A DNA stretch of 64,000 bases from an uncultured Lachnospiraceae bacterium (GCA_949484645.1 CASYOT010000002.1:2912-66911); one strand, 5' to 3'. Counted from the stretch's first letter, positions 174 through 55,458 are shown. Notes: generated by a model from the letters alone, not told the origin. Numbers and translations are program-made.

Positions 174-192
174 TATTGAATTATTTAATAAA

Positions 193-222
193 AAAGAGCC
201 GGCGTTTGCCGGTTCTTTTTTA
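193..222 (+). terminator. rho-independent terminator of flagellin gene
   Basis: GC hairpin agagccggc-gttt-gccggttct followed by a T6 run, 20 nt after the flagellin stop. Confidence 0.8.
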
Positions 223-397
223 TATAAAATCTAAAGTTTTTGTATGTATGTCCGATATATACTATAATGAAATCAACATTTTTAAAATCTATTGTAGCAA
301 GGAAGCTGCGCCAAATTCAGGGAGGAAAATTCATGGCATTCAAAATCTGGAATTATTTTACCTAAGTATAATTGAACATTGAATAAGAAAAATATAG

Positions 398-426
398 GTT
401 GACAAATGTCAGCTTTTTATTATAAT
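398..426 (+). promoter_or_regulatory. sigma-A-like promoter (TTGACA-N16-TATAAT) driving the first island genes
   Basis: ttgacaaatgtcagctttttattataat: perfect -35 and -10 hexamers with 16-nt spacer, about 40 nt upstream of the RBS and ATG at 465. Confidence 0.6.
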
Positions 427-464
427 ACAAAAAAATATTGCTGGGCAATATGGAGGGGTATAGT

Positions 465-806
465 ATGGAGGAATTTTCAAATTTATTGTGGCACAATATT
501 GAAATTGTTCAGTGCATTTGTAATAAAATCGAGAATCAGGAAGCGTACATTGAGGATATTCGGGGATACCTTCCTTCTCTTAATCAAATGATTACATCAA
601 TATTTACAAATATGCAGCAAGGGCAAATTTCTTTGGAATTGAATCAAGGCTTTATTATTCAGGCGCTAAATGATATTCTATATGGAATAGAAAATGAAGA
701 TTCTGTATTTTTGCTTGATGTATTGCGATATGGGTTATTAGAAATTTATGGATACATAAGTAGTGAACTGCAAAGTGAGGGCTGTTATGAATCAGTTAAT
801 ATATAA
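465..806 (+). CDS. hypothetical small protein (113 aa), first gene of island
   Basis: ORF with GGAGGGG RBS 7 nt upstream of ATG 465; overlaps the Maf-like gene start by 20 nt, which suggests translational coupling; no recognisable domain. Confidence 0.45.
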   Translation: MEEFSNLLWHNIEIVQCICNKIENQEAYIEDIRGYLPSLNQMITSIFTNMQQGQISLELNQGFIIQALNDILYGIENEDSVFLLDVLRYGLLEIYGYISSELQSEGCYESVNI

Positions 807-2685
807 AAAAAATCTGGAGGCGTTAAATGCGAAATATCCTATATGGGCGGCTCTTATAGACGGGGTAAAACGTAAAAAACGAAATTTCAATGTTGAAGCA
901 GAGCAGAGTTTCATGGGAGAAACTATTTTGAAAGTAACTCAAGATGGGAAAATGCGTTACTTAAATGGAAAATATGCTCCTTCGGCAGTAGTGGAACGTT
1001 GGTTTGAAAAACAGGGAAAAATAGAAGAATACGCGCCAATTGTGATAATAGGCATTTCAAATGGAGAACATATACGACAAATTATAGAACGCTCCCCAAA
1101 GACTTCTAATATTTTAATTTATGAGCCATCTTTTGAATTATTCCGCAGGGCGATGCAAGAAGTGGATTTAACATTTCTTTTTGAGATGGATATTCCGGTA
1201 GGGATTATTGTTGAGGGATTAAATGAAGATGAGTTAGAAGCTTTCCTTTATTTATTTATATCTTATGACAATATGGCTTTTCTTCGGTGGTATATTTCAG
1301 GGAATTATCAGGAATTATTTCCAAAAGAAGTGGAAGAATTTGTAGGACGTTTAAAGAATCATGTGTCACAAATCCATATTGGCTGGAATACAAAATTACG
1401 TTATACAAATGTCAGGGCAGTAAATGTATTTGTCAATCTGCCATATTTAGCAGATGGATACAGCATTCGGGAATTGTATGGAATGCTTCCGGAAGACGTT
1501 CCGGTTATTGTCGTTTCAGCAGGCCCATCTTTAAATAAAAACATTATGGAATTGAAAAAAGCAGTCGGGAAAGCCTGTATTATTTCAACAGATACTGCGA
1601 TAAAGCCTCTCTTAAATGCAGGAATCGTGCCGAATTTCTTTATTATTATAGATGGGTTAAAGCCGGAAGTGCTATTTCAACATAAGGATATATCTAAAGT
1701 TCCTATGGTGACTATGACGGCGGTTTCCACAGAGCCGATGTCATGCCATAAAGGGAAAAAATTCTTTTATGGCGCGGAGTCTGCATTTGAAGATGAACTT
1801 ACGGGAGATATAAAGAGGAGCCGTGACGAAGACAGTGACAGAGTGATACCGTTTCTTGTAACTGGCGGTTCTGTTGCGACTTCGGCATATGCGCTGGGTT
1901 TAAATATGGGAGCTAAGACAGTGATATTAGTGGGTCAGGATCTTGCAATGACCGGGAATAAAACGCATGCAGACGGTACATTTCAGGCGCAGATGGATCA
2001 GATTGACAAAAATAGCGGCGAATACTTTGAAGTGGAAGCTATAGATGGCGGCAAGGTTTTGACGAGACTTGATTTTGATATGTACCGTAAATGGTTTGAA
2101 GACCATTTTAAGCAGTGGAATCATGTCACAGTCGTAGATGCGACAGAAGGCGGAGCATTAATTCATGGAACGAAAGTAATGACTTTAAAAAAGGCAGTTC
2201 AAAAATATTGTGTGCATGAATTTAATGTAAAGTGGCATACGGATCGCTGCAAAAAATTATTTCAAGATGAACAGCGGGAAGTTGTGTTGGATTATTTTGC
2301 AAATTCCCTAAAAAAATTACAGGAAGTGAAGAAAAAAGCGACAGAAGGGATTCGTTTCTATGAACGTCTGGAGAAGATGGCGAAAAAAAGCTCGGTATCA
2401 GATCAGGAGCTTGGAAAGGCTTTGAAAAAAATCAAGAAATTAAATCATTATATGGAAACTGACTATATGGCGCGCACTGTTATGGATAGTTTAGATGGTC
2501 TAAATTTTACGTTAAGGCCGCTTGCTTATCAATTAAGAGAGGATAAACGGAGCGAGCTTTTAGATGTGGCTAGTCAGGGAAAAGTGCTACTTTACGGGGT
2601 GGCAGTTGCAGTAGATGAAGTATCTGAGATAGCGGAAAAGACGATTGTGCAGTACGCCAATTCCAACAGGACGAAACGGAAATAA
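787..2685 (+). CDS. Maf-family (motility accessory factor, DUF115/MptE-like) putative flagellin nonulosonic-acid glycosyltransferase
   Basis: N-terminus MNQLIYKKNLEALNAKYP resembles the Maf N-terminal signature; VIVVSAGPSLNKN matches the DUF115 GPSL motif; about 630 aa, typical Maf length; located next to flagellin. Confidence 0.7.
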   Translation: MNQLIYKKNLEALNAKYPIWAALIDGVKRKKRNFNVEAEQSFMGETILKVTQDGKMRYLNGKYAPSAVVERWFEKQGKIEEYAPIVIIGISNGEHIRQIIERSPKTSNILIYEPSFELFRRAMQEVDLTFLFEMDIPVGIIVEGLNEDELEAFLYLFISYDNMAFLRWYISGNYQELFPKEVEEFVGRLKNHVSQIHIGWNTKLRYTNVRAVNVFVNLPYLADGYSIRELYGMLPEDVPVIVVSAGPSLNKNIMELKKAVGKACIISTDTAIKPLLNAGIVPNFFIIIDGLKPEVLFQHKDISKVPMVTMTAVSTEPMSCHKGKKFFYGAESAFEDELTGDIKRSRDEDSDRVIPFLVTGGSVATSAYALGLNMGAKTVILVGQDLAMTGNKTHADGTFQAQMDQIDKNSGEYFEVEAIDGGKVLTRLDFDMYRKWFEDHFKQWNHVTVVDATEGGALIHGTKVMTLKKAVQKYCVHEFNVKWHTDRCKKLFQDEQREVVLDYFANSLKKLQEVKKKATEGIRFYERLEKMAKKSSVSDQELGKALKKIKKLNHYMETDYMARTVMDSLDGLNFTLRPLAYQLREDKRSELLDVASQGKVLLYGVAVAVDEVSEIAEKTIVQYANSNRTKRK

Positions 2686-2715
2686 TAGGATCACATGATA
2701 CAGGGCATTACAAAA

Positions 2716-2756
2716 AGCAGCGGGCGGCTGAAAATCAAATTTCAGCCGCCCGCGTT
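2716..2756. terminator. bidirectional rho-independent terminator between convergent genes
   Basis: Long perfect hairpin gcgggcggctgaaa-atcaaa-tttcagccgcccgc flanked by A and T runs, between the Maf stop (2685) and the minus-strand gene end (2766). Confidence 0.75.
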
Positions 2757-2765
2757 ATGTATCTT

Positions 2766-3749
2766 TTATTTTAGGTACTTGAACCAATCTTCCGTGGCAT
2801 CGACAATGGTATCCGGCGTCCATACAGGAGCTTTCCGCCAATAGTCAATGTTTTCAAGGACTTTGCTAACGCCATCTTCAAATGAGATTTTAGGCTCCCA
2901 TCCCAGAACATCATGAATTTTTGAAGTGTCAGCAAATGTGCAGTCGGGTTCTCCGGGTCTTTTTGGGATATTTGTGATTTCACCGCCCAATAGTTCACAC
3001 AGCCTGTTTATAGAGTAGGTTCCTCCGCTTCCAACGTTGAATGTGTCTTGTTTGATATCCGACATAGCGGCTGTATAAAAAGCGTCGACAATATCTGTTA
3101 CATATGTAAAGTCCCTTGTTTGAGTTCCATCTCCTACAACGGTAAATGGTTTGTTGGCTAGTTTTTGGGCTAAAAATACGCCAAATACAGCCCCATAAGT
3201 GCCGGAAGTCCTCGATCTTGTGCCATATACGTTGAATAGTCTCAAAGTAATCACAGGAAGACCGTAGACTTGCCCCCAGTGCAAGATGGTTTCTTCCCCT
3301 AATCTTTTTGTAAGGGCATAAGGATACTGTGGCCTGATTTCGGCTGTTTCTCTGGTAGGGTATTGGTCAGGAATGCCATAACAGGAAGATGAAGCGGCAT
3401 AAAGCAGCTTTTTGATATTTGTGTTTTTCGCGCATTCCACTACATTAAACGTTCCTAGGACATTAGAGGAGTAATAATCTTGAGGCCTCTGAATAGATGG
3501 AACGATGTCGGCTAATGCCGCAAAGTGGAAAATGTAGTCCACATCTTTAAAAATAGGCTGGATTTCCTCCTTATTTCGAATGTCCATTTGATAGATGCTG
3601 AGATTTTTGTGGCCTTTGAGGTGATCTAGGTTTTCTAATCTTCCAGTGCTTAAATTATCAATTACGCGGACGTCATGCCCTTCAGATAAAAGCCTATCCA
3701 CCATATGGGAGCCAATAAATCCGCACCCGCCTGTAACCAGTGACGTCAT
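2766..3749 (-). CDS. NAD-dependent epimerase/dehydratase family (extended SDR) nucleotide-sugar modifying enzyme
   Basis: N-terminal TGGCGFIGSHMVDRL Rossmann motif, catalytic YxxxK (YPYALTK), 327 aa; last gene of a gmhA-gmhB operon, so possibly a heptose epimerase or reductase. Confidence 0.75.
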   Translation of the reverse strand: MTSLVTGGCGFIGSHMVDRLLSEGHDVRVIDNLSTGRLENLDHLKGHKNLSIYQMDIRNKEEIQPIFKDVDYIFHFAALADIVPSIQRPQDYYSSNVLGTFNVVECAKNTNIKKLLYAASSSCYGIPDQYPTRETAEIRPQYPYALTKRLGEETILHWGQVYGLPVITLRLFNVYGTRSRTSGTYGAVFGVFLAQKLANKPFTVVGDGTQTRDFTYVTDIVDAFYTAAMSDIKQDTFNVGSGGTYSINRLCELLGGEITNIPKRPGEPDCTFADTSKIHDVLGWEPKISFEDGVSKVLENIDYWRKAPVWTPDTIVDATEDWFKYLK

Positions 3750-4309
3750 ATACTGTTTCCTTCCTTTCTTTCTAATATTTTAATAAAGTCCCTCAAATCT
3801 TTCAATGTATAATCGGGAACTACTATTTCTTCTAGGCGCGCAACTCCATAACCGGAATCAAGCAATACCGTTTTTAAGTTCGCATTTTCGCCAAGCCGTA
3901 TATCACATGCGCGATCTCCAACTACATAAGAGCCATTCATAGTTATTTGAAAATCTGAACAGGCTTTTTCTAACATACCTATAGCGGGTTTGCGGCAATT
4001 ACAATTAAAGGCATAGCCTTGTATCACGCCTTTTTGATGATGTGGGCAGTAATACACAGCATCAACTCCTGTCTCTTGTATGAGATATTGATTCATGGAG
4101 AGAAGCGTTTCTTCCGTGAAATAACCGCGCGCAATCCCGCTTTGGTTAGAAACGACAATCGCATAGTAACCATAAGTATGTATTTTTTCTATACAGCTTT
4201 TGGAGTATGGGAAAATTTCCAGCTCATTTGTGGAACGGATATAGCTTTTTTCTTTAGTAAGAACGCCATCTCTATCAAGGAAAATAGCGGGTTTTGCTTT
4301 CTTTTTCAA
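3746..4309 (-). CDS. gmhB: D-glycero-D-manno-heptose 1,7-bisphosphate phosphatase-like HAD-IIIA phosphatase (GmhB-like)
   Basis: FLDRDGVL HAD motif I, SNQSGIARG motif, about 187 aa, same pattern as GmhB/histidinol-phosphatase family; overlaps gmhA by 4 nt. Confidence 0.75.
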   Translation of the reverse strand: MKKKAKPAIFLDRDGVLTKEKSYIRSTNELEIFPYSKSCIEKIHTYGYYAIVVSNQSGIARGYFTEETLLSMNQYLIQETGVDAVYYCPHHQKGVIQGYAFNCNCRKPAIGMLEKACSDFQITMNGSYVVGDRACDIRLGENANLKTVLLDSGYGVARLEEIVVPDYTLKDLRDFIKILERKEGNSI

Positions 4310-4887
4310 ATGGATGCCCCTTCACTTTCTAATATCATATCTACTATTTGTTGTAAAATTAAATTATGGGCTGATTCCACAATGCCATATTTACTGCAAG
4401 GAGTATAGACGTTAATATCGCCTAATTGCCTTGCCTTATTGTCAGGGCTAAAACCTGTAAATGTAATGACTTTTGCATTTTTTGCTTTGGCTGTTTGAAT
4501 TGCATTGATAATATTTTGTGAATTGCCTGAACTGCTGATTGCCACGACTAAATCATCTTTTTTTACAAGAAAATCCATTGGTTTTGAAAATATATATTCA
4601 TAACCATAATCGTTGCCAATGCAGGTTGTCAAAGCGTTATCATACAGGTTATATGCGTTCATTTTTCCGTTTTTCATAAAATCTGCCGCCATATGGCTGG
4701 CAATGGCAGCGCTGCCGCCGTTTCCTACGAAAAAGAGATTTGAGCAGAAACGTTTATGTTCAAGAAAAACATCAAAAAGCATTTGGATGCCTTCTGTGTA
4801 GGTTTCGTGGTATGAACCGTCTTTTTTTTGTATTTTCGTTGATTCTAATGTTTGTATAAATGTGTTAATATAATTATTTTGCAGCAT
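4306..4887 (-). CDS. gmhA: phosphoheptose (sedoheptulose-7-phosphate) isomerase, SIS domain (GmhA-like)
   Basis: SIS-domain signature FFVGNGGSAAIASHMAADF, 193 aa, typical GmhA size; 4-nt overlap with gmhB. Confidence 0.8.
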   Translation of the reverse strand: MLQNNYINTFIQTLESTKIQKKDGSYHETYTEGIQMLFDVFLEHKRFCSNLFFVGNGGSAAIASHMAADFMKNGKMNAYNLYDNALTTCIGNDYGYEYIFSKPMDFLVKKDDLVVAISSSGNSQNIINAIQTAKAKNAKVITFTGFSPDNKARQLGDINVYTPCSKYGIVESAHNLILQQIVDMILESEGASI

Positions 4888-5496
4888 AATAATCGCTTCT
4901 TTCTGATAATTATTTATAATGTATTAGTATATCACAGGAGTATAGCATGTAACAAGAATTTTTTGTAATGATTCCTGTTATTGATTTCTGTTATAAATAA
5001 TAGAAATGGTTAGAATGAAATAATTCGTAAATGATTGTATTTAATATGTATAAAGTTAAATTAAGGATAAGCCGATAAAAAGAATAAGAGTTAAATTGCG
5101 TTTTCTATCAGCATGGAAGCTGTATTTTATTCAGGGAGGAAGAAGAAATGACGAAAAGGAAAGACATGCAGCGAAAAATTGCATGGGGGGGGAAAATCAG
5201 AATCTACTAAAAAGTGGAAAAAAATTCAAACTTTATATGGATTATCTCAAGAGACGTTAGGGGCAATTTTTTTGTTGCCTTTTTTTTGGTGTCTGCCGTT
5301 TGATCCGGTTATGGCTTGTAAAGGATATAAGTGTGTTGGGATAAGAATGGATAAGAATTGTTGGAAGGACGCCTATGTTTGAAACAAAGACAGCATGGGA
5401 AACGCAGTGAATATACTACAATTCTTTTTTTGCGTTTTATAACATTTTTTGCAACAGAAGATAATATGCCAAAATAGCTGGGAAGAAGGAATTAAA

Positions 5497-7077
5497 ATGA
5501 ATTTAGAAGCTGAATTTGAACGGTTAAAAACATGTTCCCGTATTTTGATTTGGGGCGGCGGTTATCATACGAAAGAGGCGCTAAGGTTTTATAAATCTTT
5601 TTTTAGGGAACGGGACATACAGATTGTAGATAAGAATAAGGCAGGCCAAAGCATAGAAGGATATAAAATTATTGCTTCAGATGAAGCAGATTATTCGATT
5701 GATTATGTTGTGATTATGTCGTCAATATACCATGATGAAATTGAATATGCTTTGCGGAACAGACATGGTTATCAAGGGGCAGTGATAGGTTTATATGCGT
5801 TTCGGAGAGTTCTTTTAAAACTGGATTCATATGAAGAATGTATTGGGCATATGGAAGATTTTGTGTCTCATATGGAACAAGGCATAGCAAGTTATTCTTA
5901 CGACTATATATTTCAAGAAAACTATAGCGTATATAAAAAAATAAGGCTATATGCGTTTTGGGCGTCTTCTATTGGTGAATCAGTCCGGTATTTATCGGCA
6001 TATTATGAAACTGTTTTTAAGGATAAGGCAGAAGATGAATACTGCCTGTTAATTCCCTATATAAAAGGGAATGATTTCGCGAATGGGCAATTTATAGAGG
6101 TTGTTTCCCGTACAGTTCCTATGGTTACATATTGCAACTGTCATTTTTGGGAGTATGCGGTGAAAAAGTACAGAGAGCGTTTTGATTTGACGTCTTATAA
6201 TGAATTTAACGGTATTTTAGTGGATGCATATAATCAATTTGATGAACGGATTATAAACAGGACGTTTTGTGATAAAAAGTTTCCTTTGATTGCCTATACG
6301 CCGGAAGAACGTAAGATGGCGGAATATAAATTAAGGCAAATGGGCGTTTTTGGAGATTTCGTGTGTATATTTGCAAGAGATAACCACTATTTGCAGCATC
6401 AGTATGGACAGGCTTATGGAATTAATGAAATAAGAAATATGGATATCAATTCTTTTAAATCTGCAGTGGATTATTTGGAGGGACAGGGAGTAAAGGCAGT
6501 CCGCATGGGAAAAGTTGTCAACGGGCCGGTCAATCTGCCAAACTGCATAGATTATGCGGCGGATTTCCATAGCGACTTTATGGATTTATATTTATGCGGT
6601 AATTGCAAGTTTTATGCAGGGAGTTTGTCTGGGATTGTTGCGCTTGCCCAGCTTCAAAGCGCGCCTGTGGTTTTGCTCGGGGTGGTTCAGCTGGGGATTC
6701 ACAATTCAATACCATATAGGAGCAGAGATATTTACGTCCCAAAGAAAATATATGACAAAAATAAGAAACGTTTTTTAAATTTTACGGAAATATGGGATGC
6801 GGAAATGGCCGCTAAGGACAAAATATCAAAATATTATGGGGAACACGGGCTTGAGTTTATAGAGCTTGGCAAAGAAGAAATAAAAGAAGCGATAGTGGAG
6901 ATGAACGATAAATTAGATGGAGTGTATCAGGAAGACGAACAGGAAAAAGAACTTCAAAAGAAATATCATTTGCTGTTGGAAAACTGGATATTAGAGAATG
7001 GATACCAGTATTCTTATTTCTTGCATATTGACATAAGCGGCAGTTTTATTAAAAAGAATACATTTATGCTTGCATAG
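5497..7077 (+). CDS. hypothetical protein with PglD_N-like Rossmann N-domain and large uncharacterised C-terminal domain (possible transferase)
   Basis: Start chosen at MNLEAEF with GAAGGA RBS (track start 5449 also possible); N-terminal RILIWGGGYHTKEAL...IVDKN resembles the N-domain of paralogs at 26583, 28033 and 30528; no confident family. Confidence 0.4.
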   Translation: MNLEAEFERLKTCSRILIWGGGYHTKEALRFYKSFFRERDIQIVDKNKAGQSIEGYKIIASDEADYSIDYVVIMSSIYHDEIEYALRNRHGYQGAVIGLYAFRRVLLKLDSYEECIGHMEDFVSHMEQGIASYSYDYIFQENYSVYKKIRLYAFWASSIGESVRYLSAYYETVFKDKAEDEYCLLIPYIKGNDFANGQFIEVVSRTVPMVTYCNCHFWEYAVKKYRERFDLTSYNEFNGILVDAYNQFDERIINRTFCDKKFPLIAYTPEERKMAEYKLRQMGVFGDFVCIFARDNHYLQHQYGQAYGINEIRNMDINSFKSAVDYLEGQGVKAVRMGKVVNGPVNLPNCIDYAADFHSDFMDLYLCGNCKFYAGSLSGIVALAQLQSAPVVLLGVVQLGIHNSIPYRSRDIYVPKKIYDKNKKRFLNFTEIWDAEMAAKDKISKYYGEHGLEFIELGKEEIKEAIVEMNDKLDGVYQEDEQEKELQKKYHLLLENWILENGYQYSYFLHIDISGSFIKKNTFMLA

Positions 7078-7126
7078 CATTCTGGCGGGAACAAAATTTG
7101 ATGAATAAACAGGGGGAATTTGAATT

Positions 7127-8188: not shown

Positions 8189-8238
8189 TATCCGTTTATT
8201 CCAATAGGAGAATAAATTTTAAGAGTTAGGAGAGAACG

Positions 8239-9084
8239 ATGGATTTAAAAGAGCGGGCGGCTGAAATAAGAAAAATGATTTTTAAAATGGCATACCGGGG
8301 AGGGAGCGGGCATTTGGCATCGGCTTTTTCGATTGTGGAAATTTTAACGGTTTTATATTTTGGGGGAATTTTAAATATAGATCCGAAAAATCCGGATTGG
8401 GCGCAAAGGGATAAATTGATATTAAGCAAGGGACACGCGAGTTTGGCATTATATAGTGTATTGGGTATGAAGGGATTTTTTCCACAAAAAGAGTTACAGA
8501 CTTTTTGCAAGCCGGGTTCAGAATTCGGAGGAGAACCCAGAATGGGGCATATAACGGGCGTAGAGGCGACTACAGGCTCGCTTGGGCATGGGCTTTCATT
8601 TGGCGTGGGGATTGCAATGGCGCATAAGATGAATGGGGAAGCGAACAGGACATATGTGATAATTGGAGATGGCGAATGCCAAGAAGGAAGCATATGGGAA
8701 GCTGTAATAGCGGCGCCGCACCACAAACTAGACAATTTGACAGTGATTTTAGATAATAACAGGCTACAGGCAATGGGGAAAGTGGAGGATATTCTTGCGT
8801 TGCGCCGCCTGCGGGAAAGCTGGGAAAATTTCGGCTGGGGCATCGCAACAGTAGATGGGCACGATATAGAAAAGCTTTGTAAATGTCTGGATAAGGACAG
8901 ACAAACGGAGGATGGCAGACCGCATTTAATTTGTGCGGATACAGTGAAAGGAAAAGGCGTTTCCTTTATGGAAAGCGAGCCCATCTGGCATTATCGGATG
9001 CCGAATGAACAGGAATTAGAAATTGTATTGCAAGATTTGGGCATGACAAGAGAGGAGCTGATTCAATGCGAAATGAATATTTAG
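8239..9084 (+). CDS. transketolase, N-terminal (TPP-binding) subunit
   Basis: GGSGHLASAFS, GSLGHGLSFGVGIAMA and IIGDGECQEG motifs of the split transketolase N-subunit; 281 aa. Confidence 0.9.
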   Translation: MDLKERAAEIRKMIFKMAYRGGSGHLASAFSIVEILTVLYFGGILNIDPKNPDWAQRDKLILSKGHASLALYSVLGMKGFFPQKELQTFCKPGSEFGGEPRMGHITGVEATTGSLGHGLSFGVGIAMAHKMNGEANRTYVIIGDGECQEGSIWEAVIAAPHHKLDNLTVILDNNRLQAMGKVEDILALRRLRESWENFGWGIATVDGHDIEKLCKCLDKDRQTEDGRPHLICADTVKGKGVSFMESEPIWHYRMPNEQELEIVLQDLGMTREELIQCEMNI

Positions 9085-9989: not shown

Positions 9990-9994
9990 CAAAA

Positions 9995-48185: not shown

Positions 48186-48845
48186 ATGAATGATATTATC
48201 CTAATCGGCTCTGGAGGCTGTATGCGGGAGCTGGTCTGGCAGATACAGCAGTTGAACGGGGAATGCCGTGTATGGAATATTTTAGGCTATGTTGACAAAG
48301 CCGATCGGTCCGGCGTTTCCGACATAAAAGTTTCCGGCCAGAGCATTCCCTATCTTGGCGGAGATGACTTCCTTTTACGCCGGACCGAACAGACGAATGC
48401 CGCTATATGTGTCGGGAATCCTTCCTTACGGAAAAAAATTGCCAAGAACATACAGAAAAACCCGCATATCTGTTTTCCTAATTTAATTTTAGGCAATGTA
48501 AAAATCTGCTCTGACGTACAAATCGGGAAAGGCTGTATTATCAGTATGGACGCCCGTATTTCTACGAATGTTGCATTGGGGGATTTTGTTTTTTTAAATA
48601 TGGGAAGCGGGATCTGCCATGACGGAAAAATTGGAAATTATGTCACATTAAGCCCAGATGTGCGTCTTGCCGGAAACGTAACCGTGGAAGAAGGCTGTGA
48701 CATTGGCATGGGAGCAAAGATTATACAGGGCAGGCATATCGGCGCAAATGCAGTGATCGGGGCAGGAAGCGTCGTCATCACTGACATAGCGGCTGGCTGC
48801 ATGGCGGCCGGCGCGCCGGCAAAGGAGAAGAAGAAAAAAATATGA
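48186..48845 (+). CDS. NeuD/PglD-family hexapeptide sugar N-acetyltransferase (LegH-like)
   Basis: N-terminal Rossmann-like ILIGSGGCMRELVWQI...LGYVDKAD followed by LbH repeats (GNYVTLSPDVRLAGNVTVEEGCDIGMGAKI). Confidence 0.75.
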   Translation: MNDIILIGSGGCMRELVWQIQQLNGECRVWNILGYVDKADRSGVSDIKVSGQSIPYLGGDDFLLRRTEQTNAAICVGNPSLRKKIAKNIQKNPHICFPNLILGNVKICSDVQIGKGCIISMDARISTNVALGDFVFLNMGSGICHDGKIGNYVTLSPDVRLAGNVTVEEGCDIGMGAKIIQGRHIGANAVIGAGSVVITDIAAGCMAAGAPAKEKKKKI

Positions 48846-49831
48846 GCGTCACTATTATCGCCGAAGCAGGCGTAAACCATAATGGCAGTTTCACGCTTGC
48901 GAAGAAAATGGCAAAAGCCGCAAAAGATTCCGGAGCGGATTATGTCAAGTTCCAGACATTTAAACCGGAAAATTTAGTTTCAAAATATGCCGCAAAAGCT
49001 GATTACCAAAAAGCATCTGGCAGTCAGGACGAAAACCAGTTGCAAATGTTAAAAAAGCTTGCCTTAACGGAACAGGATTTTTTGGCATTAAAGCGGTACT
49101 GTGAAAGCATCGGGATCGGATTTTTGTCTACACCGTTTGATTTGGACAGCATAGAATTTCTAGATACCATAGGCATGGATTTCTGGAAATTGCCGTCTGG
49201 GGAAATTACAAATTATCTTTATTTAGAAAAAATTGCAAAGACGAAGAAAAAAATCGTTTTGTCCACGGGCATGTGTGAGATTTCAGAAATTCGGGACGCT
49301 ATAACTGTTTTGAATAAAAACGGCGCAGCGGATCTTACGCTTTTGCATTGCAATACGGAATACCCGACGCCTTTTGCAGACGTAAATTTGCTCGCTATGC
49401 ATCATTTAAAACGGGAATTTCAAATGCCTGTCGGATATTCTGACCATACGATTGGCATTGAAGTCCCCATTGCCGCCGCCGCGCTTGGCGCAGTTGTAAT
49501 AGAAAAGCATTTTACGCTTGACAGAAATATGGAAGGCCCGGATCAGAAAGCCAGCTTAGAGCCCAAAGGGCTTCGTCAAATGATACGCGCAATCCGCAAT
49601 ATAGAACTCAGCATGGGCGATGGTTATAAACGCCGCTCGCCTTCCGAAGAAAAAAACCTTGCCGCCGCCAGAAAAAGTCTTGTCGCAAAACGCGCGATCC
49701 GCAAAGGAGAGCTTTTTACAGCGGAGAACCTGACTGCAAAACGTCCGGGAAATGGGATAAGCCCGATGAAATGGAACGAAGTTTTAGGCATGGCGGCCGA
49801 AAAAGATTATGAGGTGGACGAACTGATATGA
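48842..49831 (+). CDS. legI: nonulosonic acid synthase, NeuB family (legionaminic acid synthase candidate)
   Basis: TIIAEAGVNHNGSFTLAKKMAKAAKDSGADYVKFQTF NeuB signature plus C-terminal SAF domain; adjacent to the NeuC- and NeuA-like genes. Confidence 0.8.
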   Translation: MSVTIIAEAGVNHNGSFTLAKKMAKAAKDSGADYVKFQTFKPENLVSKYAAKADYQKASGSQDENQLQMLKKLALTEQDFLALKRYCESIGIGFLSTPFDLDSIEFLDTIGMDFWKLPSGEITNYLYLEKIAKTKKKIVLSTGMCEISEIRDAITVLNKNGAADLTLLHCNTEYPTPFADVNLLAMHHLKREFQMPVGYSDHTIGIEVPIAAAALGAVVIEKHFTLDRNMEGPDQKASLEPKGLRQMIRAIRNIELSMGDGYKRRSPSEEKNLAAARKSLVAKRAIRKGELFTAENLTAKRPGNGISPMKWNEVLGMAAEKDYEVDELI

Positions 49832-50979
49832 AAAAAATTGCAGTGGTTACAGCGACGCGGGCAGAATATGGGATCTTGCGGCCTTTACTGGAACGTTTGG
49901 AAAAAGAGCCGGAATTTCAGCTTTTACTTTATGTAACGGGAACCCATCTGGTTTCCCAATACGGAAATACACAGACAGAAATAGAAGCTGACGGCATAGC
50001 GGTTCACAGAAAAATCCCAATCTTAGAAAGCGGGAACACGCCATATGCGGTGTCCCTGACAATGGCAAACGCAATCCGTGGATTTGCGGATGCGTTTGCG
50101 CAGGATAAACCCGATTTTTTAGTGGTCTTAGGAGACCGTACAGAATTGCTTGGGATATGCAGCGCGGCTATGAACGAACGAATCCCAATCGCCCATCTGC
50201 ATGGCGGGGAATTGACCGAAGGGGCTGTAGACGATTGCGTCCGCCATGCCGTCACGAAAATGAGTTACCTGCATTTTGCGGCGGCGGAGCCTTACCGGCA
50301 GCGGATTATCCAGATGGGGGAAGCGCCGGAACGCGTATTTAACGTTGGCGCGCTTGGCGTGGAAAATACATTAAACGTTCCGCTTTTCAGCCGTGAAGAA
50401 CTTTGTGAAGAAATCGGGATTCCTGCTAATCTCAGGTATGCAGTCGTTACCTTTCACCCAGTTACATTAGAAGCGGAATGCGCCGTTGAACAGACGAAAG
50501 CATTGTTAGATGCGATTCAGGAAGAAAACCAATTTTTCTATCTGATTACAAAAGCGAACGCAGACGTCGGCGGTGAAATAGTCAATACATTGTGTGAACA
50601 GTTCGCAAAACAAAACAGCCATGTGAAACTGACTGCTTCGCTTGGCATGAAGCGTTATTTAAGCGCAGTCAAATACAGCGCATTCGTACTGGGCAATTCA
50701 TCAAGTGGAATTATTGAAGCTCCCGCGCTTGGCGCGCCTGCCGTCAACATTGGGAACCGCCAGAAAGGAAGGCTTATGGCGGATACTGTAATTTCCTGTG
50801 GAAATACAAAAGATGAAATAGCGGCCGCTATGAAAAAAGCCATTCGGACGGAACGGAAAAAATCCATTCTCTATGGAAGCGGGGGAACTTCTGAGAAAAT
50901 AATAAAAACGCTTAAAGAAGTGTTACAGGGCGGGAACATAAATCTGGAAAAACAGTTTTACGATTGGAGAATGAAATGA
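49828..50979 (+). CDS. legG: hydrolysing NDP-N-acetylhexosamine 2-epimerase (NeuC/LegG-like)
   Basis: KIAVVTATRAEYGILRPLLERL N-terminus typical of NeuC-type 2-epimerases; 383 aa. Confidence 0.8.
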   Translation: MKKIAVVTATRAEYGILRPLLERLEKEPEFQLLLYVTGTHLVSQYGNTQTEIEADGIAVHRKIPILESGNTPYAVSLTMANAIRGFADAFAQDKPDFLVVLGDRTELLGICSAAMNERIPIAHLHGGELTEGAVDDCVRHAVTKMSYLHFAAAEPYRQRIIQMGEAPERVFNVGALGVENTLNVPLFSREELCEEIGIPANLRYAVVTFHPVTLEAECAVEQTKALLDAIQEENQFFYLITKANADVGGEIVNTLCEQFAKQNSHVKLTASLGMKRYLSAVKYSAFVLGNSSSGIIEAPALGAPAVNIGNRQKGRLMADTVISCGNTKDEIAAAMKKAIRTERKKSILYGSGGTSEKIIKTLKEVLQGGNINLEKQFYDWRMK

Positions 50980-51662
50980 AGCAAATCGCAGTCATTCCGG
51001 CAAGAAGCGGCTCGAAGGGATTGAAAGATAAAAACATTAAAGTCTTAAACGGAAAACCAATGATGGCGTATACCATAGAGGCGGCATTAAACTCCAAATT
51101 ATTTGACTGCGTCCACGTTTCTACAGACAGCGCGCAGTACGCTTCCATAGCAAAACAGTATGGCGCAGACGTTCCTTTTTTACGGGATAAGGAGCTGGCA
51201 GATTCAAAAGCCAGCACATGGGACGCCCTTCGGGATGTCATTCAAAAGTATAAAGAAGCAGGGCGGGAATTTGACGCTGTGACGCTGTTACAGCCTACGT
51301 CTCCGTTAAGGAGCGCTGCAGACATTAGGGAAGCACACTGCATTTTTCAGGAGAAAAACGCTGATTCCGTCGTAAGCGTCTGTCAAATGGAGCACCCAAT
51401 ACAGATTTGCAATACACTTGGAGAAAACGGCTCTCTCTATCAGTTTCTTGACAGCAACCGAATCGGAGCAAGGCAGGATCAGGCTGTTTACTACCGTATC
51501 AATGGCGCAATTTATATTTTGAAATTATGGATGCTTTTGGAAAAAGAAAATATTTATAATAAAAACTCATACGCATATATTATGAGTAAAGCGCATTCGG
51601 TCGATATTGATGATTATTTAGATTTTAAATTGGCGGAAATTCTGGCAAAGGAAAATTTCTAA
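50976..51662 (+). CDS. legF: CMP-nonulosonic acid synthetase, NeuA family (LegF-like)
   Basis: IAVIPARSGSKGLKDKNI motif of acylneuraminate cytidylyltransferases; start at MKQIAV (ATGA overlap with the legG stop). Confidence 0.8.
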   Translation: MKQIAVIPARSGSKGLKDKNIKVLNGKPMMAYTIEAALNSKLFDCVHVSTDSAQYASIAKQYGADVPFLRDKELADSKASTWDALRDVIQKYKEAGREFDAVTLLQPTSPLRSAADIREAHCIFQEKNADSVVSVCQMEHPIQICNTLGENGSLYQFLDSNRIGARQDQAVYYRINGAIYILKLWMLLEKENIYNKNSYAYIMSKAHSVDIDDYLDFKLAEILAKENF

Positions 51663-51739: not shown

Positions 51740-52813
51740 ATGAATGCAGAAAAATTGACGTCATTTTTAATCTCCCCCGATCATACTGTGGTAGAAGCTA
51801 TGCAGAAAATCGACAGTAACGCGAGGGGAATTTTATTTGCGGCAGATGAGAGCCGGAAATTATTAGGCGTTGTGACGGATGGAGATATCCGCAGATGGCT
51901 GATTAAAACGGGAGAATTAAAAGGTTCTATAGAAAGCGTGATGAACCGCAGCCCGAAAACCATACGTCCGGATAAAGTTTCCGCTTCCAGAGAATACATG
52001 GAAAAATTAGTGATTACGGCGTTGCCTGTCGTAAACGAAAGCGGGATTATCTGCGATATTATATTTCGGGAGCCAAAGGAAGGCAGATGCATCAAACGGA
52101 AAGGCCATTTGGATAGCGTTTCCGTTGTAATTATGGCGGGAGGAAAAGGGACAAGGCTGTATCCTTTTACAAAAATACTTCCGAAACCGCTTATTCCGAT
52201 CGGGGATATTCCAATAATGGAACGTATTATAAATAAATTCCGCGAGTTTGACGTCAAAGATTTCTATGTTACGGTGAATTACAGGAAAAATATGATTAAA
52301 TCATATTTTTCGGAAATCAGCTCGGACTATTCGATCTCTTATGTAGAAGAAGACAAGCCGCTTGGAACGGCGGGAAGCCTTGGGCTGATTCCGGCAAATT
52401 TTGAAAAACCGTTTCTGATTACAAATTGCGATATTTTAATCCATGCGGATTATAGCGATATATACCGCCATCACATAGAATCTGGAAATGAACTTACAAT
52501 AGTAACTGCTTTAAAAAATATTGTAGTTCCATATGGCGTGATACATTCAGGAGAAAATGGAGGAATCGAGCGGCTTGAAGAAAAGCCGAAGCTTTCTTAT
52601 TTTGTTAATACCGGAATGTATATTTTAAATCCGGATATACAACATGAAATTCCGCAAGAAACATTTTTCCATATGACTGATTTGGCGGATAAATTGTTAA
52701 AAGAAAACCGGAAAGTGGGTATGTACCCTATCAGCGAAGATTCCTTTTTGGATATGGGGGAATTTGAGGAAATGCGCCGTATGGAAGAAAAATTAAATAT
52801 GAAGACGGAATAA
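51740..52813 (+). CDS. CBS-domain sugar-phosphate nucleotidyltransferase (PtmE-like GlcN-1-P guanylyltransferase candidate)
   Basis: N-terminal CBS pair (VVEAMQKIDSNARGILFAADESRKLLGVVTDGDIRR) fused to an NTP-transferase domain (VVIMAGGKGTRLYPFTKILPKPLIPI). Confidence 0.7.
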   Translation: MNAEKLTSFLISPDHTVVEAMQKIDSNARGILFAADESRKLLGVVTDGDIRRWLIKTGELKGSIESVMNRSPKTIRPDKVSASREYMEKLVITALPVVNESGIICDIIFREPKEGRCIKRKGHLDSVSVVIMAGGKGTRLYPFTKILPKPLIPIGDIPIMERIINKFREFDVKDFYVTVNYRKNMIKSYFSEISSDYSISYVEEDKPLGTAGSLGLIPANFEKPFLITNCDILIHADYSDIYRHHIESGNELTIVTALKNIVVPYGVIHSGENGGIERLEEKPKLSYFVNTGMYILNPDIQHEIPQETFFHMTDLADKLLKENRKVGMYPISEDSFLDMGEFEEMRRMEEKLNMKTE

Positions 52814-52839: not shown

Positions 52840-53820
52840 ATGAAGAAAGCGCTTGTAACAGGTGCGGACGGGTTTATCGGGAGCCATTTGACGGAAAGCC
52901 TTTTAGAAAAAGGCTATCAGGTAAAAGCATTTGTTTATTATAATTCATTTAATAACTGGGGGTGGCTGGATACGCTGCCCAAAGAGAAGTTAAGCCAGAT
53001 TGAAATTTTTTCAGGCGACGTCAGAGATCCGAATGGCGTGCGGGAAGCGATGAAAGGCGTAGATTTGGTATTTCATTTAGCAGCGCTTATCGCAATCCCA
53101 TTTAGCTACCATTCTCCGGATTCTTATGTGGATACGAATATTAAGGGGACACTAAACGTTTTGCAGGCGGCAAGGGAGCTAAACACGGAGCGTCTGCTTG
53201 TCACGTCCACTTCAGAAGTGTATGGAACTGCGCAGTATGTTCCTATTGACGAAAAGCATCCGTATCAGGGGCAGTCGCCATATTCCGCGACCAAAATTGG
53301 GGCAGACCGTCTGGCAGAGAGTTTTTACCGCAGTTTTAAGCTTCCGGTGACGATTGTGCGCCCATTTAACACATACGGGCCAAGACAGTCTGCAAGAGCG
53401 GTGATCCCAACGATTATTACCCAGCTTTTGGCGGGGAAAGATGAGATCAAACTGGGTTCTTTGGCCCCGACAAGAGATTTCAACTATGTCAAAGACACTG
53501 CGGCAGGCTTTCTTGCAATCGCTAAATCCCAAAAAACGATCGGCGAAGAAATCAATATAGCGACGCAACAGGAGATTTCCATTGGAGATTTGGCAAACGA
53601 AATTATTTCTCAAATCCGTCCGTCCGCTAAAATCATTTGCGATGAAGCAAGGCTGCGGCCTGAAAAAAGCGAAGTCAACCGTTTGCTTGGCTCAAATGAA
53701 AAAATTATGCGGCTCACGGACTGGAAACAGCAATACACGTTTGCCCAAGGGATTTCCGAAACCATTGAATGGCTCCGCCATCATATGGATGCTTATAAAA
53801 CAGATATTTATAATGTATAG
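52840..53820 (+). CDS. legB: NDP-N-acetylglucosamine 4,6-dehydratase, retaining (LegB-like SDR)
   Basis: KALVTGADGFIGSHLTESLL Rossmann motif; YSATK catalytic motif; 326 aa; position in the leg-like block. Confidence 0.7.
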   Translation: MKKALVTGADGFIGSHLTESLLEKGYQVKAFVYYNSFNNWGWLDTLPKEKLSQIEIFSGDVRDPNGVREAMKGVDLVFHLAALIAIPFSYHSPDSYVDTNIKGTLNVLQAARELNTERLLVTSTSEVYGTAQYVPIDEKHPYQGQSPYSATKIGADRLAESFYRSFKLPVTIVRPFNTYGPRQSARAVIPTIITQLLAGKDEIKLGSLAPTRDFNYVKDTAAGFLAIAKSQKTIGEEINIATQQEISIGDLANEIISQIRPSAKIICDEARLRPEKSEVNRLLGSNEKIMRLTDWKQQYTFAQGISETIEWLRHHMDAYKTDIYNV

Positions 53821-53832
53821 GGGAGAAATGTT

Positions 53833-55020
53833 ATGAGCCGTTATATACCATTGTCTATTCCGAATTTTGAAGGAAATGAAAAAAAATATGTTCTCGATGC
53901 AGTTGAACAAGGCTGGGTTTCTACGGGAGGGGCGTATATTACAAAACTTGAACGGATGCTGGCGGATTATCTGCATACGGAGGAGGCTGCCGCCTGTCAA
54001 AGCGGCACAAGCGGGATACATCTTGCGTTAATAGAATGTGGGGTTTTGCCGGGCGACATGGTTTTAGTTCCGACTCTAACATTTATTGCGGCTGTGAATC
54101 CGGTGCGTTACCAGTTTGCAGAGCCTGTGTTTTTGGACTGTGATAAGAGTCTGTGCGTCGACCCTGTCAAACTGCGTCAATTTTGCGAACAAGAGTGTAC
54201 GTTAAAAGAAAACCGCCTTGTCCATAATCTGACCCAAAAAACCGTAAAAGCGCTGATCGTTGTGCATGTTTTTGGAAATTTTGCCGATATGGAAGCGATT
54301 ATGGAAATAGCGGAAACGTACCATATTAAAGTGATTGAAGATGCGACGGAAAGTTTGGGAAGCCGGTACGAAAAGGGGCGTTTTGCCGGAAAGTATGCTG
54401 GCGCGATAGGGGATTTCGGTGTATTCTCCTTCAATGGAAATAAAATTATTACAACGGGCGGGGGCGGCGCAGTCACTGCAAAAAATGCGGAAACAGTCCG
54501 CCATATCCGCTATCTGTCCACACAGGCAAAAGATGATCCGCATTTTTATATACATGATGAAGTCGGTTATAACTACCGCATGACGAACTTACAAGCGGCG
54601 CTTGGAGTGGCGCAAATGGAAAAATTAGAAGAATTTATTGAGCGGAAGCATAAAAATTATGAGCTGTACCGTGAATTGTTTTCTGATTTTGCATATGGGA
54701 AACTGCTTGGGTTCCGTGAAGACACGTATTCCAATCAGTGGTTTTATGCGTTAGAGTTAAATGGAAAACTAAAGTTTCCGCTTCGGAATCTGATTGAACG
54801 GCTGGAGACTTTCGGCGTGCAGACAAGAGCAGTCTGGGGGCTGATTCACAGGCAAAAGCCGTATCAGAATTGCCTTGCCTATGAAATGGAACGGGCGCCT
54901 TATTATAGCGGCTGTATTTTAAATCTGCCTTGCAGTACGCAAATTACAGAAGAAGAAATCCGTTATGCGGCGCAGACCATACAAAGAGAAATAGAATCAT
55001 GGAGGATAACAGATGATTGA
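53833..55020 (+). CDS. legC: DegT/DnrJ/EryC1-family aminotransferase (LegC-like)
   Basis: IPLSIPNFEGNEKKYVLDAVEQGWVSTGG...FNGNKIITTGGGGAV DegT-family signatures; 395 aa. Confidence 0.75.
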   Translation: MSRYIPLSIPNFEGNEKKYVLDAVEQGWVSTGGAYITKLERMLADYLHTEEAAACQSGTSGIHLALIECGVLPGDMVLVPTLTFIAAVNPVRYQFAEPVFLDCDKSLCVDPVKLRQFCEQECTLKENRLVHNLTQKTVKALIVVHVFGNFADMEAIMEIAETYHIKVIEDATESLGSRYEKGRFAGKYAGAIGDFGVFSFNGNKIITTGGGGAVTAKNAETVRHIRYLSTQAKDDPHFYIHDEVGYNYRMTNLQAALGVAQMEKLEEFIERKHKNYELYRELFSDFAYGKLLGFREDTYSNQWFYALELNGKLKFPLRNLIERLETFGVQTRAVWGLIHRQKPYQNCLAYEMERAPYYSGCILNLPCSTQITEEEIRYAAQTIQREIESWRITDD

Positions 55021-55375
55021 AAATAGAGATGAGCAAAAAGAGGCATTGGAAGTTTTGCTTGGGTTTAATGAACGTTTGGTGAAAAACATGAAATTAGTTG
55101 CAAAGGAGTTAAAAGACGGAAGGTTAGACGATACCGAAGCGTTTTTAAATGACATTACGCAAGCGATGAATTGGGAGATTCAAGTTGTCAATGGGACGTT
55201 GGATTTGCTGAATGAAGGAAAAGAGCGTCTGGATAAAGTAAGATTTAATGAGAAGATCCAAGCGTTAAGCGGCGCAATCGCATCCAAAGACGACAAACAA
55301 ATGGCGGAAACGTTTCTGGAGGCTGTTTCTGTGTTTGAGGAGCTTGGCGCTGCGGCGAAAGAGGTTGTTTCCTAA
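55013..55375 (+). CDS. hypothetical small acidic helical protein, last gene of the island operon
   Basis: 120-aa ORF overlapping the legC stop by 8 nt; no recognisable motif. Confidence 0.4.
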   Translation: MIENRDEQKEALEVLLGFNERLVKNMKLVAKELKDGRLDDTEAFLNDITQAMNWEIQVVNGTLDLLNEGKERLDKVRFNEKIQALSGAIASKDDKQMAETFLEAVSVFEELGAAAKEVVS

Positions 55376-55408
55376 GTAAATAATGATAGAATCGGATAAG
55401 TATTAGAA

Positions 55409-55458
55409 ATAGCGTATTTTATTTATATTTTGATAAATAAAATACGCTATTTTTTTCT
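55409..55458 (+). terminator. rho-independent terminator ending the island operon
   Basis: Inverted repeat aaatagcgtattttattta / taaataaaatacgctattt followed by T7. Confidence 0.7.

Follow-up and report, generated by a model that had tools for sequence, protein, structure and literature searches.

The DNA analysed here, a window of 64,000 nucleotides from an uncultured Lachnospiraceae bacterium (GCA_949484645.1 CASYOT010000002.1:2912-66911; positions are counted from its first letter), carries behind the end of a flagellin gene a long island of putative glycosylation genes, which is the subject of this analysis. The window opens within the flagellin gene: positions 3-173 (plus strand) hold its last 56 codons and the stop (171-173), and the encoded C-terminus matches PF00700 (Flagellin_C) with 65 bits and agrees in 55 of 56 residues with the end of a full-length flagellin in a related locus, L031. 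Reading of the sequence and a hairpin scan both place the gene’s intrinsic terminator at 199-226 (a GC hairpin, CCGGCGTTTGCCGG, followed by a T-run); the island begins 60 bp past the end of the flagellin open reading frame (ORF) at 173, and a sigma-70 promoter of perfect consensus, TTGACA-16-TATAAT, lies at 399-426 (plus strand, 12/12 match). The island is gene-dense, with 50 ORFs of at least 100 amino acids at 465-55375, laid out as three plus-strand operons (a small ORF plus Maf; 5449-14352; and 22939-55375, the last of 32 kb) and two minus-strand blocks. Where Maf and the minus-strand operon converge lies a bidirectional terminator (2720-2753; found on both strands, with 10 GC pairs in its 14-bp stem), and a terminator hairpin closes the 32-kb operon (55406-55453, plus strand; 20-bp stem, then a T-run). 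GC content is about 0.41 in the island (0.36-0.45) versus 0.47-0.50 downstream, where a flavin mononucleotide riboswitch (55963-56124; 82 bits) ahead of ribD-ribE-ribBA-ribH marks the return to housekeeping DNA; rib and bio operons lie beyond the right boundary. A sequence-only reading of this DNA had set the island’s limits at 176-55458 and had seen a flagellin 3′ end, its terminator and a consensus promoter directly upstream; all of these are real features, and the limits are natural ones, with the flagellin stop and terminator on the left and the 20-bp hairpin terminator on the right. The functional statements below draw throughout on sequence, on predicted structure and on gene context. 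Each ORF was searched with Pfam, and NCBIfam was applied to concatenated ORF pairs, with hits mapped back by coordinates and judged by curated equivalog cut-offs. Genes are referred to by their first position where a name would be ambiguous.

The island is led, as had been proposed, by a Maf/DUF115 gene (motility accessory factor; 763-2685, plus strand, likely start ATG 787), whose product is a putative MptE-like flagellin nonulosonic-acid transferase. It matches PF01973 with 120 bits, and further support comes from a weak match to Maf_flag10_N, a score of 106 bits with a PseD-domain model and a weak match to the Maf structure 5mu5. Directly before it lies a small soluble ORF of 113 residues (465-806, plus strand), for which Pfam and NCBIfam searches gave no match. 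Its gene context makes it a candidate GlfM-like factor; GlfM, encoded by a small ORF beside Maf, is the specificity factor of Maf-2-type enzymes (bioRxiv 10.1101/2023.12.03.569772). In the window and in the related loci L006, L016 and L031, the position before Maf is taken by ORFs of 109-123 residues with a C-terminal motif in common. The other glycosyltransferases of the island are two large paralogs of glycosyltransferase family 2 (GT2), a further GT2 and one of TIGR04372 type.

Three predicted promoters of the sigma-28 (SigD) type lie at 232-258 (TAAAGTTT-N11-TCCGATAT), 5051-5078 (TAAAGTTA-N12-GCCGATAA) and 22657-22684 (TAAAGTTT-N12-TCCGATAT). The pattern TAAAGTT-N12-14-CCGATA matches at these three sites (232, 5051 and 22657), all on the plus strand, against 0.02 expected, and none of 100 shuffles reached three; each site is intergenic and stands before one plus-strand operon, and there are none elsewhere. 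The sites agree with the sigma-28 form TAAA-N16-17-MCGATAa, which is reported in Butyrivibrio and used for Roseburia and Eubacterium flagellin genes, and tandem sigma-28 and housekeeping promoters have been reported for a Butyrivibrio flagellin gene (PMC3720852). A fourth sigma-28-like match (5992-6019, minus strand) falls inside gene 5449, is lost with the extended pattern and is taken as chance; a sigma-70-like site before 22939 fell outside the scan criteria and is not claimed. The leaders of operons 1 and 2 also share GCA(A/T)GGAAGCTG and ATTCAGGGAGGAA, motifs that could be CsrA-type GGA sites.

No ORF among the 50 has more than one hydrophobic 19-residue segment; all products appear soluble, and there is no polytopic membrane protein. 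The island therefore offers no candidate for a Wzx flippase, a Wzy polymerase, an ABC transporter or a phosphoglycosyl transferase, which disfavours a capsule or S-layer route for its products.

Comparison with related genomes shows that the synteny of flagellin and Maf recurs. Flagellin linkage is likewise seen in loci L006, L014, L016 and L031, and the last of these is especially informative in its gene order: flagellin, a 109-residue ORF, Maf, GT2, a short-chain dehydrogenase/reductase (SDR), PseB, two genes of unknown type, a radical S-adenosylmethionine (SAM) protein with a SPASM domain, a further unknown, a methyltransferase, a 288-residue ORF, a thiamine diphosphate (ThDP) enzyme, an aldo/keto reductase, a methyltransferase and a cytidylyltransferase. 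This order is colinear with window 1-2685 joined to 22939-38266, so that the roughly 20 kb of 2766-22641 form an additional block, which in the window is inserted behind Maf and which L031 lacks.

Of the sugar pathways, those for the nonulosonic acids have all their genes on the plus strand. For pseudaminic acid (Pse) there are PseB, the inverting UDP-N-acetylglucosamine (GlcNAc) 4,6-dehydratase (25571-26572; TIGR03589, 505, cut-off 408), the pseudaminic acid synthase PseI (40387-41427; TIGR03586, 468, cut-off 340), the UDP-sugar hydrolase PseG (41443-42447; TIGR03590, 167, cut-off 154) and the aminotransferase PseC (42454-43584; TIGR03588, 492, cut-off 424). A GNAT acetyltransferase (43595-44047) is PseH-like; it matches the GNAT family in Pfam and scores 35 with the PseH model, below the cut-off of 93. 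The PseF role falls to one of two cytidylyltransferases, an SpsF/PseF-like candidate of the CTP_transf_3 type (38187-39038; PF02348, 101 bits, with weak KdsB and PseF matches, the latter 19 bits) or a LegF/PseF-like CMP-nonulosonate synthetase (50964-51662; PF02348; 188 with the PseF model, below its cut-off of 206). A class-III aminotransferase resembling glutamate-1-semialdehyde aminomutase (39052-40362) stands between the first of these and PseI. For legionaminic acid (Leg) the island encodes an N-acetyltransferase of NeuD/PglB type in the LegH role (48186-48845; TIGR03570, 162, cut-off 161), a NeuB-type nonulosonic acid synthase in the LegI role (48842-49831; TIGR03569, 483, cut-off 400), a NeuC-type hydrolysing 2-epimerase in the LegG role (49828-50979; TIGR03568, 432, cut-off 236), the 4,6-dehydratase LegB (52840-53820; TIGR04180, 515, cut-off 475) and the aminotransferase LegC (53833-55020; TIGR04181, 447, cut-off 420). 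A PtmE-like sugar-1-phosphate nucleotidyltransferase with CBS and NTP_transferase domains (51740-52813; no equivalog passed) is the only candidate for a route with a GDP-GlcNAc starter; no PtmF or PtmA homologue was found within the island.

Between these two sets lie genes, again on the plus strand, that cover the first three steps of the CDP-3,6-dideoxyhexose route: CDP-glucose 4,6-dehydratase (RfbG; 44954-46015; TIGR02622, 435, cut-off 278), glucose-1-phosphate cytidylyltransferase (RfbF; 46012-46785; TIGR02623, 357, cut-off 300) and RfbH, the E1 enzyme or CDP-6-deoxy-4-keto-glucose 3-dehydrase (46802-48145; NF011936, 709, cut-off 423). A second glucose-1-phosphate cytidylyltransferase-like enzyme (44129-44908) is 42% identical to that at 46012 and scores 281 with TIGR02623, below the cut-off of 300. 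For E3 (RfbI/DdhD), the iron-sulfur flavoprotein reductase, no ferredoxin-reductase-type match was found in any ORF of the window. The sequence-only reading had named a Pse set, a Leg set and a CDP-3,6-dideoxyhexose set. Its Pse and Leg sets are borne out by enzymes above curated cut-offs (PseB/C/G/I; LegB/C and the NeuB-, NeuC- and NeuD-type proteins), with the PseH-like and PseF candidates below cut-off and the Leg cytidylyltransferase just below; its dideoxyhexose set holds for RfbF/G/H but lacks the E3 enzyme that the classical route needs.

Five radical-SAM proteins are encoded in the island, all with a CxxxCxxC motif and a Radical_SAM domain above the Pfam threshold. A SPASM domain is present in four (7127, 9986, 16981 on the minus strand, and 29423; 28-51 bits, cut-off 21.5) and a B12-binding domain in the fifth (12712; 46.7, cut-off 32.1). 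The earlier count of five, one of them B12-dependent, was thus correct, but the SPASM-type members number four, not two. The B12-binding enzyme (12712-14352, plus strand; Pfam) has AprD4 (6fd2) as its best match in the PDB and scores 128 bits with the BchE model, well below the cut-off; its chemistry may be that of a methyltransferase or of a dehydratase. Two of the SPASM proteins, which we call B1 (16981-17994, minus strand) and B2 (29423-30469, plus strand; Pfam), are 29% identical to one another, and the SPASM region of B1 matches BtrN.

The other two, A1 and A2, belong to an eight-gene cassette. Its plus-strand part encodes radical SAM/SPASM A1 (7127-8188; PF04055 68 bits, SPASM 36 bits, no equivalog), the N-terminal (8239-9084; PF00456, 154 bits) and C-terminal (9066-9989; PF02779 and PF02780) subunits of a split transketolase, radical SAM/SPASM A2 (9986-11104; Pfam, strongly conserved across phyla) and a nucleotidyltransferase fused at its C-terminus to a PfkB sugar kinase (11144-12673; HldE model 148, below the cut-off of 521), in which the domain order is reversed relative to HldE. 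The minus-strand part encodes a GalE/HldD-like SDR epimerase or dehydratase (2766-3749; PF16363/PF01370, no equivalog passed), which is 71-85% identical across Lachnospiraceae cassettes, a GmhB-like HAD-IIIA phosphatase (3746-4309; GmhB models 145 and 123, cut-offs 178 and 150; HAD-IIIA passes) and a GmhA-like SIS sugar-phosphate isomerase (4306-4887; SIS Pfam match; GmhA model 87, below the cut-off of 209). Since every equivalog test fails, we do not file this cassette as an ADP-heptose pathway, and ‘heptose’ is used here as an analogy. By analogy, too, the cassette should convert a transketolase-derived ketose phosphate into a nucleoside diphosphate (NDP)-aldose, which the two radical-SAM enzymes would then modify. 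The heptose-type module proposed earlier therefore stands in its parts (split transketolase, SIS, HAD and kinase-nucleotidyltransferase), now as members of a larger cassette, but not in its heptose identity.

The cassette is widespread. It recurs in about 15 Lachnospiraceae genomes with its order nearly always kept (radical SAM/SPASM, the two transketolase halves, radical SAM/SPASM, nucleotidyltransferase-kinase, SDR, SIS, HAD), while Omnitrophota, Desulfovibrionaceae, Sulfurimonas, Myxococcales and one metagenome-assembled genome (MAG) of the Nanoarchaeota have it in reduced form. Homologues of A2 in Lachnospiraceae and in these other groups are 51-89% identical. A gene for the B12-binding radical-SAM enzyme often lies within or beside the cassette (L007, L008, L011, L014). 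The cassette adjoins flagellin and/or Maf in L006, L009, L011, L014 and L016, and nonulosonic-acid genes in L005, L013 and L026; XBB1006 and several other genomes show neither kind of neighbour within 10 kb. In Lachnospiraceae XBB1006 (L002/L004) the stretch directly upstream of the cassette (1-5079) encodes a dehydroquinate-synthase-like protein, an FGGY kinase and a HAD phosphatase, along with an epimerase and an NTP-transferase, which together resemble a sugar-phosphate cyclase (cyclitol) activation route. We found no paper that links transketolase, radical SAM and GmhA/HldE-type genes in such a cassette.

Two further enzymes are predicted to join carbon chains. Both are YerE-like ThDP carboligases, as had been read from the sequence, and they are 42% identical to one another. 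Carboligase 1 (18021-19805, minus strand) has three TPP_enzyme domains and, as its translation shows, GNG where the canonical metal-binding motif is GDG. The best PDB match of carboligase 2 (34126-35937, plus strand) is JanthE (8rph; E 2.8e-100, 340 bits), ahead of the best acetolactate synthase (2.8e-68, 234 bits); this closer relation supports the ‘YerE-like’ label at the level of sequence. JanthE itself has been described as a YerE-like enzyme, using ThDP to couple 2-oxoacids with ketones (PMC12188165), and it is reported to have CDG at the position of the GDG motif. Where the earlier reading had associated the two enzymes with rfbFGH, they are located in Pse-associated blocks and not beside those genes.

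The ThDP pair is one of several paralogies revealed by an all-against-all BLASTP comparison of the island’s proteins. The others are radical SAM A (7127/9986) and B (16981/29423), SDR (19898/24661; 46%), large GT2 (20881/22939; 41%), glucose-1-phosphate cytidylyltransferase (44129/46012; 42%) and methyltransferase (36842-37544/37571; 71%). Through these duplications the island contains two related modules of the type ‘ThDP + SDR + radical SAM + GT2’, an arrangement that would fit a pair of related branched sugars, each served by a transferase of its own. The SDR members are both RmlD-like by Pfam (19898-20785, minus strand; 24661-25542, plus strand). Large GT2-like protein 1 (20881-22641, plus strand) matches WcaA and TIGR04440 weakly, while large GT2 protein 2 (22939-24654, plus strand; PF00535) has its homologue directly after Maf in L031. 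Also in or near these modules are a GT2 glycosyltransferase (15062-16138, minus strand; PF00535, 97 bits), an SDR epimerase or reductase (16038-16970, minus strand; PF01370, 109 bits), a Pol-beta-type nucleotidyltransferase-like protein (33261-34151, plus strand; weak NTP_transf_2 and RlaP matches), an aldo/keto reductase (35913-36845, plus strand; PF00248, 114 bits) and a class-I methyltransferase (37571-38266, plus strand; Pfam).

A further group of duplicated genes, all on the plus strand, belongs to an uncharacterised family. Its three members (26583-28040; 28033-29463, 24% identical to the first; 30528-31757, 28% identical to the first) found no match in Pfam or NCBIfam beyond a weak match of the second to PFIN, which is of the ParB/Srx type. 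They appear to combine a PglD_N-like Rossmann domain, a core of ParB/Srx fold that carries the invariant motif SGKHR, and a class-I methyltransferase-like fold. The AlphaFold model is confident (predicted local distance difference test score, pLDDT, 93); at the N-terminus it is similar to the N-domain of PglD/VioB and to Rossmann folds of the Rex type, and no solved chain matches it as a whole. An exhaustive profile search found 553 cluster representatives, out of 1.84 billion, at E ≤ 1e-30. Homologues come from Roseburia, Lachnospiraceae and Treponema, and every one of them either has no name or is labelled ‘hypothetical’. The third paralog is followed by a 521-residue methyltransferase (31723-33288; Pfam), and fusions of the family to a homologue of this enzyme occur in some genomes (P0406: 34% over 277 residues, E 1e-44). 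Because ParB/Srx proteins bind CTP or ATP, a nucleotide-dependent tailoring of CMP-activated nonulosonic acids is plausible for the family.

Homopolymer tracts provide evidence that expression of the island may vary. The window contains four runs of at least eight G, each lying within the island and with its G on the plus strand, and no A or T run of ten or more. A G8 (5185-5192) lies in the leader of operon 2 and is G11 in L042; a G12 (22733-22744) lies in the leader of the 32-kb operon and is G11 in L037 and L038; a G9 (12999-13007) lies in frame within the B12-binding radical-SAM gene and is G8, G9 or G10 depending on the assembly. The last G9 (36982-36990) splits a methyltransferase gene (36842-37544, plus strand); G8 or G11 at this position would restore a protein of 233/234 residues, which is 71% identical to the product of the next gene. 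A fifth tract, A8 on the coding strand of the minus-strand GT2 gene 15062 (15721-15728; T8 on the plus strand), is A7 in three near-identical assemblies, where the gene is truncated. Four of the five tracts thus vary in length between near-identical assemblies. In the protein cluster of the B12-binding enzyme, formed at 90% identity, a form of 546 residues occurs on about 300 contigs and one of 412-413 residues on about 110. We compared four of the short-form contigs, which over 7.2 kb share 99.6-99.9% identity with the window; two N-run scaffold gaps aside, the sole indels are in the G tract (two contigs have G8 and two G10) and at 15721 (T8/T7), where the shorter allele truncates the GT2 in three of the four. 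In L034 and L036 the HldE-like gene looks split, but this is due to N-run scaffold gaps and not to a frameshift, and it is not used as evidence. Runs of at least eight G are also found in the related islands L006, L008, L012, L014 and L020, and a locus in a Treponema MAG (L032; GCA_051883255.1) has seven G tracts of up to G23. This Treponema locus encodes NeuB, an SDR, a YerE-like ThDP enzyme, a member of the uncharacterised family, several RlaP-like nucleotidyltransferase paralogs and two polysaccharide pyruvyl transferases. The tracts would switch the reading frames of the B12-binding enzyme and the GT2, a pattern like that of contingency loci. Being variable in length, they also give a concrete basis for the heterogeneous glycan that the sequence-only reading had predicted.

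Few genes remain to be placed. The glycosyltransferase with a TIGR04372 C-terminal domain (5449-7077, plus strand, likely start ATG 5497; TIGR04372, 173, cut-off 45) heads the second operon and is called as 526 residues in L042. A hexapeptide-repeat acetyltransferase-like protein (14370-15182, minus strand) has weak CysE/EpsC matches (42 bits). The last island gene encodes a protein of 120 residues (55013-55375, plus strand) without significant family match; its homologues are 65% identical in L006 (2671-3030) and 38% identical in L010, and it has no detectable relationship to the small ORF at 465-806. Outside the island, a 661-residue ORF (60244-62229) fuses BioW (6-carboxyhexanoate-CoA ligase) to BioF (8-amino-7-oxononanoate synthase), and BioD follows.

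Taken together, these features make it likely that 176-55458 is a phase-variable flagellin glycosylation island of a Lachnospiraceae-type Firmicute. The flagellin link that had been proposed is upheld by the family assignments, the three sigma-28-type sites, the lack of polytopic proteins, the ORF before Maf and the flagellin-Maf synteny of relatives. We predict that nucleotide-activated sugars are made in the cytoplasm and that Maf, probably aided by the GlfM-like protein encoded upstream, puts a nonulosonic acid on Ser/Thr residues of flagellin before export. The GT2 and TIGR04372 transferases would attach or extend further sugars, namely a yersiniose-like C-branched dideoxyhexose and a heptose-like or higher sugar tailored by radical-SAM enzymes. 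Methyltransferases, acetyltransferases and the three Rossmann-ParB/Srx-methyltransferase-fold proteins would tailor these sugars. Slipped-strand changes in the poly-G and poly-A tracts would act as switches for the B12-binding radical-SAM enzyme, one GT2 and one methyltransferase, and possibly for two operon leaders as well, and cells of one strain would then display differing flagellar glycans.

Several observations weigh against parts of this proposal. The body of the flagellin and its acceptor sites lie outside the window, the promoters are predictions from consensus matches, and a single Maf would have to serve two nonulosonic-acid routes. The E3 reductase is missing, the GmhA-, GmhB- and HldE-like proteins all fail their equivalog cut-offs, and there are genomes, among them Lachnospiraceae XBB1006 and Omnitrophota, in which neither flagellin nor Maf lies within 10 kb of the cassette. 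The island might instead make a cell-surface polysaccharide (a capsule, S-layer or wall glycan) and adjoin flagellin by coincidence. Capsules, O-antigens and S-layer glycans are all known to contain Pse, Leg, dideoxyhexoses and heptoses, and the XBB1006 cassette, far from any flagellin gene on this 10-kb scale, sits between GT1/GT4-type transferases. We regard this as very improbable, because the island has no flippase, polymerase, ABC exporter or lipid-carrier transferase, whereas it has a Maf, three sigma-28-type promoters and a flagellin-Maf synteny that recurs in relatives. A partial role is less remote, though still unlikely: the Maf/Pse core (465-2685 and 22939-44047), perhaps with the Leg block, would alone serve flagellin, and the inserted 2766-22641, with the cassette, the B12-binding enzyme, the second ThDP set and glycosyltransferases, would make some other soluble product or glycosylate other proteins. 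That L031 joins Maf to the homologue of 22939 without the 20-kb block, and that the cassette occurs in other phyla and in non-flagellar contexts, is what such a mosaic would predict. It does not explain the sigma-28-type promoter at 5051 before the cassette operon or the five other Lachnospiraceae loci in which the cassette adjoins flagellin and/or Maf, and the block has GT2 and TIGR04372 transferases of its own and no export genes.

The remaining alternative concerns the tracts. Differences in homopolymer length could be assembly errors, and the comparisons are all between short-read assemblies of different samples; the variation might thus be a sequencing or assembly artefact, or fixed between strains, the island being constitutive and the split methyltransferase a pseudogene. 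The methyltransferase tract, G9 in all three copies examined (the window, L040 and L041), fits this explanation. The other tracts fit it less well: over the 7.2 kb compared, real indels are confined to tracts, both shorter (G8) and longer (G10) alleles occur, and about a quarter of the cluster’s contigs carry the split form. The G tracts are also one-stranded and restricted to the island, in DNA of about 41% GC, and similar tracts of up to G23 are present in related islands. We therefore think an artefact or fixed difference rather unlikely, if somewhat less so than the mosaic, and favour phase variation of a flagellin glycosylation island.

The broadest form of this reading can be offered only tentatively, and we would expect at least some of it to fail: that a species found on hundreds of metagenome contigs diversifies its flagellar glycan under sigma-28 co-regulation and phase variation, in a manner comparable to Campylobacter and with undescribed sugars; that a cassette conserved from Firmicutes to Omnitrophota and Nanoarchaeota makes a radical-SAM-tailored heptose-like or higher-carbon NDP-sugar; that YerE-like enzymes make C-branched sugars; and that the Rossmann-ParB/Srx-methyltransferase-fold family tailors nonulosonic acids. 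If the island works as predicted above, an organism recurrent in metagenome assemblies would coat its filament in a glycan that is both complex and switchable, with a bearing on immune recognition, phage adsorption and strain typing. Lachnospiraceae flagellins act as TLR5 ligands and are major targets of antibodies when the gut is inflamed. Their pro-inflammatory nature has been reported (PMC3720852), and their glycosylation appears unstudied, as literature searches on Maf or flagellin glycosylation in Lachnospiraceae returned nothing relevant. The enzymology, too, includes elements without a described counterpart, namely the widely conserved cassette of transketolase, heptose-like activation and two radical-SAM/SPASM enzymes, YerE-like carbon-branching outside O-antigen synthesis and a three-domain family with a ParB/Srx nucleotide-binding core. 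In the literature found, we saw no description of the transketolase/radical-SAM cassette, YerE-like enzymes or five radical-SAM enzymes in a flagellin island, of the three-domain family, or of homopolymer switching in a Firmicute flagellin island.

Individual modules can be compared with characterised pathways. In the yersiniose A pathway of Yersinia pseudotuberculosis (DdhA-D, YerE, YerF), the counterparts of the island’s genes are DdhA/B/C (RfbF/G/H) and YerE, and the neighbouring SDR and aldo/keto reductases could, by analogy, play the role of YerF. In contrast to that pathway, the island has no DdhD/E3, one of its ThDP enzymes has the GNG motif, and the ThDP genes are found in Pse-associated blocks and, in Treponema, beside NeuB; this placement suggests that the acceptor may be another keto-sugar. 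The cassette shares with the ADP-/GDP-glycero-manno-heptose pathway a SIS isomerase, a PfkB kinase, a HAD-IIIA phosphatase, a nucleotidyltransferase and an SDR epimerase; it differs in scoring below equivalog cut-offs, in the reversed order of the fused domains and in always having the split transketolase and two radical SAM/SPASM enzymes. GlfM-Maf-2 sialylation in Shewanella and Kurthia (bioRxiv 10.1101/2023.12.03.569772) likewise involves a small soluble protein beside Maf in a Pse/Leg island, and neither the Maf of that system nor the window Maf has an evident tetratricopeptide repeat domain. GlfM has 89 residues and, by prediction, folds as a four-helix bundle, whereas the ORF at 465-806 has 113 residues and is likened to it by gene position.

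As a whole, the island resembles two known kinds of locus. Like it, the Cj1293-Cj1342-type locus of Campylobacter jejuni and C. coli is flagellin-adjacent and has about 50 genes, including Maf, Pse and Leg genes and tailoring genes. The window differs in its Gram-positive, Lachnospiraceae-type host, in having one Maf as against a family of seven and in the sigma-28-type promoters within the island, and it adds RfbF/G/H, YerE-like ThDP enzymes, five radical-SAM enzymes, the transketolase/heptose-like cassette and the three-domain family; the Campylobacter locus is not known to have these added gene types. Poly-G tracts switch glycan-modifying genes of the Campylobacter flagellin glycosylation locus (PMC3068675, PMC8355987). 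The islands of Clostridium (C. butyricum, C. botulinum; PMC13317340) are widespread in that genus and closer in host, being flagellin-linked Firmicute islands that are strongly modular and strain-variable and encode Maf and GlfM together with Pse and/or Leg enzymes; for C. butyricum DSM 10702, an RfbF/G/H(+RfbS) set has been predicted as well. They comprise 4-30 genes between flgB and fliD, whereas the window island has about 50 between flagellin and the rib operon, and their published description (PMC13317340) makes no mention of radical-SAM, ThDP or heptose-like genes and describes no homopolymer switching in Clostridium. The general kind of locus is therefore already known, from Campylobacter with its Pse and Leg genes, Maf paralogs and poly-G switches and from Clostridium with its Pse/Leg genes, Maf and GlfM.

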